Assembly: GCA_041738135.1 (NCBI GenBank)
Contig: JBGSQK010000018.1
Location: 4,103-68,102 of the forward strand
DNA from: Alphaproteobacteria bacterium
Lineage (GTDB): Bacteria > Pseudomonadota > Alphaproteobacteria > JAGOMX01
DNA length: 64,000 bases
Direction of reading: 5' to 3'
This document shows, piece after piece, positions 57,180-61,604 of the stretch. A program made the translations under genes and the position numbers. Positions within the stretch are counted from its first letter, which is position 1; each line of letters begins with the position of its first letter. Below the pieces are notes generated by a model. That model saw only the letters and a list, made by a program, of their open reading frames with translations, made no database searches and was not told the origin of the DNA.

Positions 57180-59240
57180 ATGTCGAAGCAGCTAAAACTA
57201 CTAAAATACCTCACATTTATGTCAAGTTTAACTCTAATTCCATATAATGCTAATGCAAGCTATAACCCCTACGATGAGGCCAACTGGGGCTCCATTGAAT
57301 CGTCCGGGTCTAAAGCAGACAGATCCAGCATCTGGGAATACCTAGTTAAGGGAGCAGCAGACAGCAAAAATAACAAAAAAGAAATAGAGGAAGAAGATGA
57401 TAGCTTCAGTCTCAGCTTAGGTTTTGGCAATGACAGATATGCAGCAGCTTCCGATGTAGAGGAAGCCAACACCAACGCTCCAGATAGGAATGATAAAAAG
57501 AACAAAACATCCAAAGCTAAAGCTAGAGAAGTTGTCGAATTAGAAGAGATCAGTGATTCCGATGAAATCGTGATGCCGAAAGCCAAAAAGAAGGCTGTCA
57601 AGAAACCTAAATTGGCAGAACTTATGATCGAACCACTGACAGAAGAAGATTCGGACCTTCAAGGTGACGATTTTATCAATGATAATAAACCTGCAAAAGC
57701 TAAAAAAGCCAAGTCATCAGTGAAAGCCCCTGCGAAATCTCCAGCAAAAACAACAGCGAAGATCACTAAGAAAAGATCCTCGCTCAAAAGACCAGCTGAA
57801 GCCATGGAAGTGGTGGAAGATTCAAGTCGCAAAATGAGCCCTGAGATGATCCTGAAATTGGTCAAGATGACCAAGGATTTCAAGGGTAAAAAGGTTGCGT
57901 TCATAGACTTTGAAACCACCTCATTCTCCGCCCGTATAGGTGGTCGTGCTCTCTCCTTAGGCATCGTTATGATCGACAATGGCATGGAAACACTTCGCTG
58001 GGAAGCAGTGTTCAACCCTGATAAAGACAGTAACGTTGGGGCTTTCAAAGCTCATGGCATCAGCAGAAGCGTGACAAGAACCATGCCACATTTCCAAGAC
58101 GTGGCCGATGAGCTCTTCTCAATTCTAAAAGAAGCAGATGCCATAGTGGCCCATAACGCCAAATTCGATTGGCGCTATATGAAAGCTGAATATGAGCGTT
58201 CCCAAATCATCAACATCCTTAAGAAAAGGGATTGCGCGAAACTACTAGGCAAGAATGCCCCCATAAGTCCTGTCAATAAGGAATTCCTTAAGGCACAGCT
58301 ATCTTGGATCAATGAAACACCTCATATCCAAGACAAAAGAATGTACATGTTCCAAAGCCGCTTAACCACAGCTCTTTGGCTCTACATGTATGAGCGCGAA
58401 GTGCTCCTTAAAGGCGATTTGTTTGACGAAAAATCAGGTCGTTTTGGGGTGCCTTTCCTGCCCACACCAAAGACCGAAGGCGCGCCAAATGTAAAGGGTT
58501 ATGCCAAGTTAGTAAACTCTGCTCTGCTCGCCATATACAAGAAAATGGAAGTGCTAAAAGGTCGTACGAAGCAGGAAAAAGAGCGCATCCAGTGGAAGAA
58601 GTTCGAGAGTATTGATATTTCAGAAAATGACAACTTTACACCACTAGAAATAAGGCGTAAAGCCATGCTGGACAGGCAAATCAGAGCAGTCTCTGTGATC
58701 AAAAAGTTCACTTTCCTCGAGCTCGAATGGTACAAAATCTATGACTGGAAACGCGTAGGTAATGAAAGCTCGGTCTTCTACAATAAAGGCGAACGTGAGC
58801 TTCTAGGTCAAATCACAGGTTACCTCAACCTGGCTCACGATATGGTTGAGAGCGGCCTGTTCTCGGTTTCTGAAACACCTAAATTCCTTGATTATGAAGC
58901 CACCTGGGTAGATTCCCTAGCTTTGGGCAAGTCTACTCTAAAATCCGGACAAGATATATCGTCTTTCAAGCTCGATTCCTTGTGCGATTACTTCGGCGTC
59001 AACAGGGATAGCCGCAAGCTCAATCATGGTGCATTAATTGACTCTGTTCTCCTGGCAAAAGTCTATGCCAAGCTGGTGGGTTCGGAGCTTGTTGAGGTTG
59101 CTGCAAACGATAACAAGCCTGCAAAAAAGCGTGCTGTGGTTAAACCAGCCAAATACGAAGAAGACGAAATGGTTATGTCATCAGAGCATGCCAATGATGA
59201 TGTGCCTGTCGAAGACGATCTAATTGGTGGGTTTTTCTAA
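57180..59240 (+). CDS. secreted DEDDh (DnaQ-like) 3'-5' exonuclease-domain protein with histone-H1-like Lys-rich N-terminal region
   Basis: Signal-peptide-like N-terminus ending ANA|SY. KAKKAKSSVKAPAKSPAKTTAK tract. Exo I FIDFETTS, Exo II VAHNAKFDWRY and Exo III HGALIDSVLLAKVY, with about 250 aa inserted between Exo II and Exo III. Acidic C-terminus. Confidence 0.7.
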   Translation: MSKQLKLLKYLTFMSSLTLIPYNANASYNPYDEANWGSIESSGSKADRSSIWEYLVKGAADSKNNKKEIEEEDDSFSLSLGFGNDRYAAASDVEEANTNAPDRNDKKNKTSKAKAREVVELEEISDSDEIVMPKAKKKAVKKPKLAELMIEPLTEEDSDLQGDDFINDNKPAKAKKAKSSVKAPAKSPAKTTAKITKKRSSLKRPAEAMEVVEDSSRKMSPEMILKLVKMTKDFKGKKVAFIDFETTSFSARIGGRALSLGIVMIDNGMETLRWEAVFNPDKDSNVGAFKAHGISRSVTRTMPHFQDVADELFSILKEADAIVAHNAKFDWRYMKAEYERSQIINILKKRDCAKLLGKNAPISPVNKEFLKAQLSWINETPHIQDKRMYMFQSRLTTALWLYMYEREVLLKGDLFDEKSGRFGVPFLPTPKTEGAPNVKGYAKLVNSALLAIYKKMEVLKGRTKQEKERIQWKKFESIDISENDNFTPLEIRRKAMLDRQIRAVSVIKKFTFLELEWYKIYDWKRVGNESSVFYNKGERELLGQITGYLNLAHDMVESGLFSVSETPKFLDYEATWVDSLALGKSTLKSGQDISSFKLDSLCDYFGVNRDSRKLNHGALIDSVLLAKVYAKLVGSELVEVAANDNKPAKKRAVVKPAKYEEDEMVMSSEHANDDVPVEDDLIGGFF

Positions 59241-59312
59241 GAACTAAACTATCCGACAACAGCGCCCAATGCTGTTGTCGGACTTCACAAACAACCAAAA
59301 AGGAGAGGTACC

Positions 59313-61604
59313 ATGACACACGCAAAAAGCCCTTCTCTGCTATATTTAGTAGCACTCACATTAACACTGACTTCACAAAGCACAGCCAGCACCTTTAATT
59401 GGGGCTTCGAAGAAGATGATGTGCTTACCCCAAAGCAAATCAAAAAACCAGCTGCGACCAAAAGGAAAAGGGACGCTCATGTTCAATGGGATCTAGAAGA
59501 AGTAGAGGAAGATGATGTCGCCAAAGCTATACCCCATAAGAAAAAAAACAAGGCCTCTATCGTTGCAGCCAGTCAAGGCGGTTGGCTTGGAATAAGTGAT
59601 GAAACCAAAAATCCAAAAGCAAAAAAACCCTCAAAAACGAAGGCTAAAAGACCCGTTGTATCAGATGATGAGGTAGATGACGGACCTATTGCTGCGAGAA
59701 AGAAATCGAGAAAATCCAAATCCTGGTACAAAGCAGGCGACTACGCGACTCTAAATAAAGGCACTGACCTGACGGGTCCCGATTTCTTAGGTGAAATTAG
59801 CCAACTGGATCTAGATGACATCGAAGAGATCCTTACATCGGTTAAAGGGGTGGAACTCGATGACGAAGCTCGTGAAATCTTAGGTCTTATAACGCTTAAG
59901 AAGAAGATGGAATTGGCAGCCATGGAACGCCAATTGGAAAAGGATGATTCAGAAGACTTAGAAGAAAACCTAGTCTCCATCGAGGATCTTGTTAGTGGCT
60001 CTCGTAAGAAAGATAAAGGCGAGTTGGGGGTTTGGGAAGCACAAATAGAACATCTCAAATCCGTTCCAAAGGTTTATGCATATGCAAAAGAGCTTGCAAA
60101 AGACGTAGAATTATTAGGTGCGGGATCTGAAGCTGGAGCTATTAAGAAGTCACAACTAAAACTTATCATAGGCCTGCCTTGGGATAAAACCTCTGAGATC
60201 AAGATAGACATTCAAAAAGGAAAAAAAATTCTCGATGACAGCCATTTTGGTATGGAAAAGATCAAAGAGCGCATACTAGAGTATTTGGCCGTACAAAAAC
60301 GTGATCCTGATGCTAAGGGTAACATCCTATGCTTTGTTGGCCCCCCAGGTGTGGGTAAAACGACCCTTTGTGAAGCCATTGCTGAAGCTACTGGCCGCAA
60401 ATTCGTAAGCGTCGCTCTAGGCGGCGTGCATGATGAGCCGCTCATACGCGGACATGCGCCTGCTTATATAGGTGCTGGACCTGGTCAAATAGCAAAGAAA
60501 TTAAAGCTAGCAGGGGTTAACAATCCTTTGATGCTATTGGACGAGATCGATAAGTTGGGAGAGGGCGGTTCTAATGGAAACCCTGCTTACGCCTTGCTTG
60601 AAGTGTTAGATCCGGCTCAAAACAAAGAGTTTGAAGACCATTTCATCGATGACTTGCCCCTAGATTTATCTAAAATCATGTTTGTCACGACGGCTAATAC
60701 GGAAGAGAAGATCTACGAGCCTTTAAGGGACAGGTTGGAAATCATTCATTTGTCTAGTTATACCAACATAGAAAAGCTGCAGATAGCACTTAAATATCTG
60801 GTGCCTAAGATGAAAAAGGAGAATAAAATAAACAATGGAGAATTGCATATTCGTACAGCAACTATAGCGCGGCTAATCGAGCAATATACACAAGAAGCAG
60901 GTGTTCGTAGCCTATCTAAACTGATTGCTAAGCTCTGCCGAAAAGTAGTCAAACAGAATACGGATCTGGGTAAAATTGAACGGGTTATTATGGAACCTAA
61001 CATGCTCGAAAAGTACCTAGGACCGCCAAAACATCTGAAGGAAAAGCCTCTAGAAAGAGATATGGTTGGTCACTGCATGGGTCTTTATTATACTACTATG
61101 GGCGGCGGTATTTTGCCCATCGAAGTGGCCATAAGTGAAGGTGATGGCAAGATCTTGCGAACAGGTGCTTTGGGCGAAGTGATGAAGGAATCCGTCGATG
61201 CAGCTTGGTCGGTGGCAAGAACTCTTGTTGGTAAATACAACGTAACAGAGGCCTCCATTAAGGACAAGAACGTCCATGTGCACTTCTACGAAGCTTCTAC
61301 TCCAAAAGATGGCCCATCAGCTGGTGCAGCCATCACAACAACCATGGTATCTGCCTTAGGTAAAATGGCTATACGCAAAGATGTCTGTATGACGGGTGAA
61401 ATCACTTTGGGAGGCACGGTACAAGCTATCGGCGGTCTTAAGGATAAGCTCATTGGCGCGCATCGTGTAGGCATGAAGATTGCCATGATACCAAAGGACA
61501 ATATACCCGATCTACAGGATGTTCCTGAAGTGGTGAAGAAGGGGTTGAAAATCATACCTGTAAGTCACATCTCTGAAGTATTAGACATTGCCTTGGTTAA
61601 ATGA
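59313..61604 (+). CDS. Lon-family protease (AAA+ plus S16 peptidase) with N-terminal LON domain replaced by signal-peptide-like leader and Lys/acidic-rich region
   Basis: LIIGLPWDKT...ILDDSHFGMEKIKERILEYLAV, Walker A CFVGPPGVGKTT, LLDEIDKLG, and catalytic Ser in PKDGPSAGAA. The first ~150 aa are hydrophobic leader, NWGFEEDD, and KRKR/KKxK tracts. Confidence 0.8.
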   Translation: MTHAKSPSLLYLVALTLTLTSQSTASTFNWGFEEDDVLTPKQIKKPAATKRKRDAHVQWDLEEVEEDDVAKAIPHKKKNKASIVAASQGGWLGISDETKNPKAKKPSKTKAKRPVVSDDEVDDGPIAARKKSRKSKSWYKAGDYATLNKGTDLTGPDFLGEISQLDLDDIEEILTSVKGVELDDEAREILGLITLKKKMELAAMERQLEKDDSEDLEENLVSIEDLVSGSRKKDKGELGVWEAQIEHLKSVPKVYAYAKELAKDVELLGAGSEAGAIKKSQLKLIIGLPWDKTSEIKIDIQKGKKILDDSHFGMEKIKERILEYLAVQKRDPDAKGNILCFVGPPGVGKTTLCEAIAEATGRKFVSVALGGVHDEPLIRGHAPAYIGAGPGQIAKKLKLAGVNNPLMLLDEIDKLGEGGSNGNPAYALLEVLDPAQNKEFEDHFIDDLPLDLSKIMFVTTANTEEKIYEPLRDRLEIIHLSSYTNIEKLQIALKYLVPKMKKENKINNGELHIRTATIARLIEQYTQEAGVRSLSKLIAKLCRKVVKQNTDLGKIERVIMEPNMLEKYLGPPKHLKEKPLERDMVGHCMGLYYTTMGGGILPIEVAISEGDGKILRTGALGEVMKESVDAAWSVARTLVGKYNVTEASIKDKNVHVHFYEASTPKDGPSAGAAITTTMVSALGKMAIRKDVCMTGEITLGGTVQAIGGLKDKLIGAHRVGMKIAMIPKDNIPDLQDVPEVVKKGLKIIPVSHISEVLDIALVK

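Follow-up and report, generated by a model that had tools for sequence, protein, structure and literature searches.

A conserved alphaproteobacterial gene pair joins an epsilon-type exonuclease and a Lon protease without its N-domain, both with predicted export leaders and charge-blocked tails

Why would a proofreading-type exonuclease and a Lon protease, encoded side by side, both begin with what looks like an export signal followed by a long, highly charged tail? The question is raised by two adjacent genes in a stretch of 64,000 nucleotides (nt), hereafter the window, from an Alphaproteobacteria bacterium (assembly GCA_041738135.1, contig JBGSQK010000018.1, positions 4,103 to 68,102 of the forward strand). 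Open reading frame 1 (ORF1; 57180-59240, + strand, 686 amino acids (aa)) encodes the exonuclease and ORF2 (59313-61604, + strand, 763 aa) the Lon homologue, with a 72-nt spacer between them. Both N-termini as read are very probably translated, because a good Shine-Dalgarno sequence precedes each start codon (GGGAGAG at 57168-57174, + strand, 5 nt ahead of that of ORF1, and AAGGAGAGG at 59300-59308, + strand, ahead of that of ORF2). The reading that we favour, with a probability of roughly 40%, is that both enzymes would be exported by Sec and would act jointly on DNA-protein complexes in a foreign cell that contains ATP, either a host or prey.

An earlier note, made from the sequence of this region, had called the two products a DnaQ-type exonuclease and a Lon AAA+/S16 protease, and the Pfam and TIGR matches and the catalytic residues bear this out. 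ORF1 is predicted to be a complete DNA polymerase III epsilon-type DEDDh 3'-5' exonuclease that is split by a helical insertion of 231 aa. Its N-terminal lobe (aa 236-343, 57885-58208; Pfam match 241-341) carries ExoI (D243, E245) and ExoII (D330), and its C-terminal lobe (aa 576-640, 58905-59099) carries ExoIII (H616, D621). All five residues are invariant across the exonuclease family and align with those of E. coli epsilon. The family-specific insertion (aa 345-575, 58212-58904) lies between ExoII and ExoIII and is mostly helical in the AlphaFold2 model. PDB searches gave no counterpart for it, and among 1.84 billion representative proteins an exhaustive HMMER search matched it to only 5. 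Five family proteins likewise came from a word-indexed search of 5.8 billion clusters; with P0254 and the distant P0256 added, the exonuclease family amounts to about seven protein clusters, and it is carried by one GTDB species genome and one JGI contig.

Disordered segments flank the exonuclease core. The N-terminal tract (aa 27 to ~225, 57258-57854) is poorly conserved and consists of alternating charge blocks, and the C-terminal tail (aa 641-686, 59100-59237; predicted local distance difference test score, pLDDT, < 50) ends in LIGGFF-COOH (nt 59220-59237). L681, I682, G683, G684 and F686 are invariant in all five aligned members, and the LIGGxF motif is also present in P0254, so that LIGGxF-COOH closes an acidic disordered tail in the Lon-paired exonucleases (window ORF1, P0122-P0125 and P0254). 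The distant exonuclease P0256, which adjoins an alanyl-tRNA synthetase (AlaRS) gene and has no neighbouring Lon, possesses the leader and lacks both LIGGxF and the long tails. Because these features are present in the Lon-paired exonucleases and absent from P0256, they are linked to the Lon partnership, with P0256 as the single unpaired case. The LIGGxF-COOH tail resembles an SSB-tail, clamp-binding or PIP-like docking peptide. A second motif, [A/I]NDN(K)P, stands on both sides of the exonuclease core in five of the seven family members and is absent from the Lon partners. In the window it reads INDNKPAK in the N-terminal tract (aa 166-173) and ANDNKPAK in the C-terminal tail (aa 642-649), and the NDNKPAK copies (57678-57698 and 59106-59126) are 86% identical as DNA.

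ORF2 has lost the LonA N-domain, as the earlier note had proposed, and the helical linker, AAA+ module and S16 protease domain are intact. The PF02190 LON N-domain model gives no match in ORF2 or in its closest relatives (P0002-P0021) and is present in canonical matches. TIGR00763 aligns residues 193-761 of ORF2 to model positions 210-795, with a score of 607.2 against a cut-off of 608.05, and LonA chains in the PDB align from residue ~180-190 onward. The place of the N-domain is taken by a disordered Lys-rich and acidic tract (aa 27-166, 59391-59810, pLDDT < 50; residues 21-166 are predicted disordered by AlphaFold2). Toward its end, at aa 138-147 (nt 59724-59753), lies a clade motif, (R/K)n-WY-x-x-G-x-YA-x-L, of which W138, Y139, G142, Y144 and L147 are invariant in the Lon-family alignment. 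A helical region follows (aa ~168-330, 59814-60302) with one long helix and a three-helix segment before the AAA+ module; it matches LonA from ~184/205 and contains the conserved block 'GEWxxKIExLKSxPEVY...LPW'. The AAA+ module and lid (60303-60962) hold Walker A (GPPGVGKT, K349), Walker B (D410/E411), N462, R474 and R532, and the S16 domain (aa 562-763, 60996-61601) holds the Ser669 and Lys712 dyad. The domain matches are Lon_C (8.3e-69), AAA (1.7e-22) and Lon_lid (2e-15), and the Walker A/B, sensor-1, sensor-2, Arg finger and Ser-Lys residues are invariant across the Lon members. Because the DEDDh residues and the ATPase and protease residues of Lon are all invariant, both proteins appear to be under selection as active enzymes.

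The wider clade of Lon proteins is varied at its N-termini. P0009-P0019 (loci L016 and L017) are N-domain-less LonA-type proteins of 568-600 aa with ~50% identity that start with a hydrophobic segment of 20-28 residues, in many cases with E-H at its centre, which leads straight into the helical linker; P0010 lies in an ordinary chromosomal context (AddAB, dUTPase, ParE). P0003 (992 aa) and P0007 (1258 aa) each have two tandem linker-plus-AAA+ modules followed by a single protease domain, with a hydrophobic segment at the N-terminus of P0003 and a long N-terminal region in P0007. A canonical lon gene was not found in the window, whose large ORFs encode AlaRS, RecA, a secretin, ribonucleotide reductase, DsbD, YifB and others.

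Are the leaders export signals? The calls come from a heuristic feature table covering 15 proteins, with some leaders read manually. The ORF1 leader (aa 1-26, 57180-57257, MSKQLKLLKYLTFMSSLTLIPYNANA) has an n-region charge of +3 and predicted cleavage after ANA, a layout that recurs in the orthologues. That of ORF2 (aa 1-26, 59313-59390, MTHAKSPSLLYLVALTLTLTSQSTAS) has AXA-like sites at 23-26 and a predicted helix at 8-19. Both combine a positive n-region, an uncharged hydrophobic run, an AXA-like site at ~23-26 and a net-acidic stretch, and they resemble the leaders of clearly exported proteins in the same window. The same anatomy occurs in all 12 pair-type and related members, with n-region charges of +1 to +4, a short hydrophobic core and an AXA-like site at ~22-27, and in all 12 the 20 residues after the predicted cleavage site are net-negative. 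Automatic flagging picked out 8 of 11 pair-type leaders; P0124 was mis-parsed, P0125 gave no site and P0011 gave one only at position 18, and these three calls come from manual reading. The features thus agree with those expected of Sec/signal peptidase I substrates (n-, h- and c-regions, small residues at -1 and -3), and cleavage is predicted. The hydrophobic Sec-type leader that the earlier note had proposed for both proteins therefore holds as signal-peptide character in the feature table.

The charged tracts behind the leaders, ~190 residues in ORF1 and ~140 in ORF2, are predicted disordered by AlphaFold2, and their alternation of acidic and Lys-rich stretches, also noted earlier, is evident in composition and in blockiness. 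Residues 27-217 of ORF1 contain 19% K+R and 20% D+E, residues 27-137 of ORF2 contain 23% K+R and 17% D+E, and the blockiness exceeds that of composition-preserving shuffles with z = 5.1 and 6.3, respectively. No other ORF of at least 150 aa in the window has this charged composition. The Lys-rich tracts contain K-K/R-x-K/R motifs like those of nuclear localisation signals (NLS).

The proposal that the two enzymes carry one swappable leader module was not supported. BLASTP between the two N-termini gives E = 0.14. Comparison of the family N-terminal profiles with hhalign aligns only the 25-residue signal peptide, at a probability of 25%. Smith-Waterman alignment of the mature tails gives z = 2.6, a score equalled in 16 of 1000 shuffles and owed in part to the blockiness of both tails. 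Homology of the two modules was therefore rejected as demonstrable, and similarity beyond composition, the standard that the earlier note had set for itself, was not found between them. An 'NWG' motif does occur in both window proteins, as the note had observed, but it is not retained in orthologues, which keep only an aromatic residue with acidic neighbours close behind the predicted cleavage site, and it was dropped as a conserved motif. Nor was a third enzyme with the module found among 294 ORFs in the window and 19 related loci (~300 kb). The suggested effector family with several cargoes is for that reason reduced to one operon, always with the same two cargoes, whose products converged on, or co-evolved, the same architecture.

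This rare operon is conserved while its surroundings are not. The order exonuclease then Lon, with a spacer of 65-80 nt, recurs in five lineages (the window; L002; L003/L004/L018; L006; L007/L008), and the flanking genes are unrelated in each. In every lineage with a readable neighbourhood, the Lon downstream of the exonuclease is N-domain-less and has the same type of leader and tail. No exo-Lon pair was found beside the DUF3576-LeuRS genes (LeuRS, leucyl-tRNA synthetase) in relatives with 82% and 78% LeuRS identity. Because the flanks differ and the pair is absent from this position in relatives, it is a conserved yet movable or accessory unit. In L004 (9186-11834; CAWAEF010000015.1, from a metagenome-assembled genome in GTDB) three ORFs take the place of one intact exonuclease gene; the breaks are probably assembly frameshifts rather than signs of a pseudogene, because the near-identical copies (P0123, L003, L018) are intact.

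The pair could also be a cassette of mobile or phage origin, or could serve in anti-phage defence, with the nuclease and the Lon-like protease as effector and regulator. The different neighbourhood in every lineage, the absence beside DUF3576-LeuRS in relatives (LeuRS 78-82% identical) and PADLOC matches to DEDDh, PDC-S48 and BrxL models are what such an origin could leave behind. However, no integrase, transposase or flanking repeats were found around the pair, and its coding parts show no GC anomaly. PHROG matches only generic exonuclease and Lon families. A whole-protein defence match was sought in PADLOC and set aside, since the hits are confined to shared catalytic domains: a generic DEDDh match, the N-terminal exonuclease region of PDC-S48 and the protease domain of BrxL (47 bits). 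Defence proteins, moreover, normally lack signal peptides. We regard a mobile or defensive role as highly improbable.

What, then, would a Lon protease do beyond the cytoplasm? Its AAA+ module is conserved and needs ATP, and the periplasm contains none. For this reason either the pair would work in the cytoplasm or nucleus of another cell, or the leaders do not direct export. One export scenario, a periplasmic or extracellular pair that works independently of ATP, would have the exonuclease degrade DNA for nutrition or uptake and the Lon act as a plain peptidase or chaperone, with the neighbouring oligopeptidase B finishing off basic peptides. The signal-peptide features are as expected for it, the ORF3 product encoded 72 nt downstream has a leader too, and many other exported proteins are encoded in the window. 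That Walker A/B, sensor-1/2 and the Arg finger are strictly conserved in all members would, however, be senseless without ATP, and oligopeptidase B adjoins the pair in the window alone and not in L002, L003, L006 or L007, which leaves this scenario improbable.

Delivery into another cell would accommodate both the leaders and the ATPase. We suggest that cleavable Sec-type signal peptides may take both products out of the producer's cytoplasm, and that the disordered, charge-blocked tails may then tether both enzymes to nucleic acid or nucleoprotein. A Lon that has kept every ATPase and protease residue would have to work where ATP is present, and the most coherent way to arrive there would be delivery of the pair into a eukaryotic host or prey cell. 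There, the N-domain-less Lon may unfold and degrade DNA-bound proteins while the epsilon-derived exonuclease digests the exposed DNA from its 3' ends. More speculatively, the invariant acidic LIGGxF-COOH tail would be a docking peptide for Lon or for a clamp-like protein. A precedent is PRP1 of Holospora obtusa, a 63-kDa protein of the periplasm that has a putative signal peptide; after its release into the macronucleus of the host it binds DNA there (PMC9866348). We favour delivery because of this precedent and because a textbook signal-peptide anatomy recurs throughout both families. It also agrees with the conserved operon, with the invariant catalytic residues of both enzymes, with the presence of leaders in all members including the distant P0256, with the disordered and charge-blocked tails, with the restriction of LIGGxF and long tails to Lon-paired exonucleases, and with the company of Fic, lipase, choline-kinase-like and RTX-like genes in the window and of tssE near one of the pairs.

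If the leaders do not direct export, the N-terminus could be an uncleaved anchor, either a reverse signal-anchor or a monotopic hairpin, that holds both enzymes at the membrane facing the producer's own cytoplasm. FtsH and archaeal LonB, which are membrane-bound AAA+ proteases, provide the analogy. The Lys-rich tails would then bind the nucleoid or acidic lipids, and the pair would act at the membrane, where it would process DNA-protein complexes such as incoming foreign DNA, or serve in quality control of nucleoid or membrane proteins. Such tethering places the conserved ATPase motifs in the only compartment of the producer with ATP, and it would suit the hydrophobic N-terminus of 20-28 residues that precedes the linker in P0009-P0019, at least one of which sits in a housekeeping context; related loci also look like those of free-living bacteria, and membrane-bound forms of Lon are known (LonB; PMC9569914). 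Yet the positive-inside rule predicts the C-terminus outside in every member, the transmembrane-type relatives included, and the hydrophobic cores of the pair-type proteins span only ~10-16 residues and have AXA-like sites behind them, an arrangement known from cleaved signal peptides. Known defence systems give no match past generic domains. We consider a membrane-tethered cytoplasmic pair somewhat unlikely, and it is the alternative that we take most seriously.

Several observations weigh against delivery. The leader calls derive from heuristic sequence features, and the hydrophobic core of ORF1 is weak (max H12 = 1.22). No outer-membrane route was identified, and the secretin in the window seems to belong to a Tad/Cpa pilus. 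The related N-domain-less Lons with long transmembrane-like N-termini stand in ordinary chromosomal contexts, which suggests that the hydrophobic N-terminus could originally have served as a membrane anchor. The LeuRS of the window is only 60-63% identical to that of any named taxon. Finally, the related loci, with flagellar genes, a Tad-type pilus, phasin, proline, heme and lysine biosynthesis and mechanosensitive channels, look free-living and not like those of a strongly reduced obligate endosymbiont.

A bolder form of the delivery model can be drawn, in which the Sec-exported Lon and exonuclease, steered by tails like those of histone H1, would strip and digest chromatin or nucleoid with the ATP of the host or prey. 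It would make the pair the first case of an ATP-dependent AAA+ protease as a translocated effector, with LIGGxF docking on the Lon ring or a sliding clamp. We consider this bolder form unlikely.

The surroundings of the pair can be summarised as follows. Upstream, a 784-nt intergenic region separates ORF1 from the divergent DUF3576 gene. Part of it (56737-57110) is a candidate promoter/operator region that is AT-rich (GC ~0.29-0.34) and contains repeated TATTAAC-type motifs and the direct-repeat families D1 and D6; a TATTAAC-N-TTATTAAC-like motif occurs in three to four copies in the 784 nt and may represent operator sites. The ORF1-ORF2 spacer contains a hairpin with a 13-base-pair (bp) stem (59251-59283), without a T-run on the + strand, and the ORF2-ORF3 spacer one with a perfect 14-bp stem (61613-61641), with no clear T-run. 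These could be partial terminators or elements of mRNA stability within the operon. Rfam and tRNA scans of the window gave no matches. ORF3 (61677-63881, + strand), 72 nt after ORF2, encodes an oligopeptidase B of the S9 prolyl-oligopeptidase family (NF007511, 1.4e-135) with a signal-peptide-like leader (…FILLTNAHA|SE); E. coli PtrB is cytoplasmic.

Farther away, the window encodes a Fic-domain protein (33121-34614, + strand), a class-3 lipase with a signal peptide (42343-43734, - strand), a choline/ethanolamine-kinase-like protein of the APH family (38659-39612, - strand) and an RTX-like protein with calcium-binding repeats (27412-29223, + strand), a gene set often tied to interaction with other cells. 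A Tad/Cpa-like pilus block (18653-22556, + strand) comprises a small membrane protein, a CpaB-like protein, a 634-aa secretin and a lipoprotein, and this secretin is the only outer-membrane channel seen in the window. In L006, the type VI secretion baseplate gene tssE (6864-7352; TIGR03357, 2.6e-22) lies 446 nt upstream of the exo-Lon pair and is itself preceded by several ORFs without a family match. The LeuRS of the window is 70-84% identical to those of metagenomic alphaproteobacteria and then 60-63% identical to those of Rhodospirillales, Nucleicultrix and Caedimonas alike. A yaravirus-like genome was also recovered from the metagenome Ga0182030, which indicates only that the sample contained protists along with their viruses.

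In the current view, Lon proteases reside in the cytoplasm or in mitochondria, or else are bound to a membrane with their ring on the cytoplasmic side. This view is challenged by a LonA that has what looks like a cleavable export signal, is conserved in several lineages and is coupled to a proofreading-type exonuclease just as "exported". Were export true, ATP-dependent proteolysis would be deployed in a foreign cytoplasm or nucleus, and the pair would define a new class of effector. Were it not, the locus would reveal a new membrane-anchored Lon in which a disordered tail of DNA-binding type replaces the substrate-recognition domain, and would show that textbook features of signal peptides can mislead. 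In both cases the exonuclease brings an orphan domain, the 231-aa insertion, and an unexplained invariant motif, LIGGxF-COOH.

How do the two enzymes compare with known systems? LonA, LonB, LonC and LonBA are the described Lon subfamilies (PMC9569914), and a search of the literature agreed with the earlier note in finding no described family with the present architecture; nothing was found there on secreted, exported or signal-peptide-bearing Lon. LonA (endopeptidase La, MEROPS S16.001; E. coli 6u5z; Meiothermus taiwanensis 7fd4) shares with ORF2 the AAA+ module, lid, S16 Ser-Lys dyad and pre-AAA+ helices, and bacterial LonA is 42-54% identical to it over residues ~190-761. S669 and K712 are 43 residues apart, as are S679 and K722 of E. 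coli, and the Walker A-B spacing (K349 to D410) is 61 residues compared with 60 in LonA and 82 in LonBA (PMC9569914). Unlike LonA, ORF2 is missing the first 180-200 residues with the PF02190 substrate-binding domain, and has the leader and a disordered tract of ~140 aa instead. ORF2 thus works like a LonA and is derived from one, while it lacks the N-domain and falls narrowly short of the curated score.

LonB and LonBA likewise lack the LonA N-domain and have a hydrophobic element that possibly attaches to the membrane. In LonB the membrane anchor lies inside the AAA+ module, and LonBA has a beta-hairpin insert and an N-extension of 72-73 residues and has so far been found only in Firmicutes (PMC9569914). 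By contrast, the AAA+ module of ORF2 aligns continuously with that of LonA and its N-terminal region is ~330 residues long; TIGR00764 (LonB) scores 113 against a cut-off of 516.6, and TIGR02902 (spore_lonB) 87 against 723. Judged by alignment and model scores, ORF2 belongs to neither LonB nor LonBA.

DnaQ (1j53 / 5fku_D) has the same DEDDh residues of ExoI, ExoII and ExoIII as ORF1, in a contiguous domain of ~180 aa rather than one split by a 231-aa insertion. ORF1 adds the leader and an N-terminal disordered tail of ~200 aa. The alpha-binding C-terminal tail of DnaQ shows no similarity in ORF1 by phmmer, and the ORF1 tail ends in LIGGxF. Because the domain is split, the TIGR01406 score (104.5, cut-off 222.7) is far too low and the tail is different in sequence, ORF1 is best described as a predicted epsilon-type DEDDh exonuclease that is not DnaQ.

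For the proposed route, from the periplasm to a host compartment and with DNA binding, PRP1 of H. obtusa is the closest parallel (PMC9866348). However, PRP1 is not an enzyme pair and needs no ATP, no sequence kinship is expected, and the window organism differs from Holospora (its LeuRS is ~60% identical to that of the holosporalean Caedimonas). Lys-rich bacterial proteins resembling histone H1 have a known example in Chlamydia Hc1. Known nucleomodulins leave their bacteria mostly by type III, type IV or type I secretion, with Sec as the route in monoderms (reviewed in PMC7819608 and PMC7232420); the K-K/R-x-K/R tracts of our pair could be an NLS or a DNA-binding tail, and nuclear targeting would be pure inference. 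The literature searched contains no Lon or epsilon-type exonuclease as a nucleomodulin. Set beside all of these, the exo-Lon pair unites in one conserved operon two familiar enzyme families, of which it is a new architectural variant.

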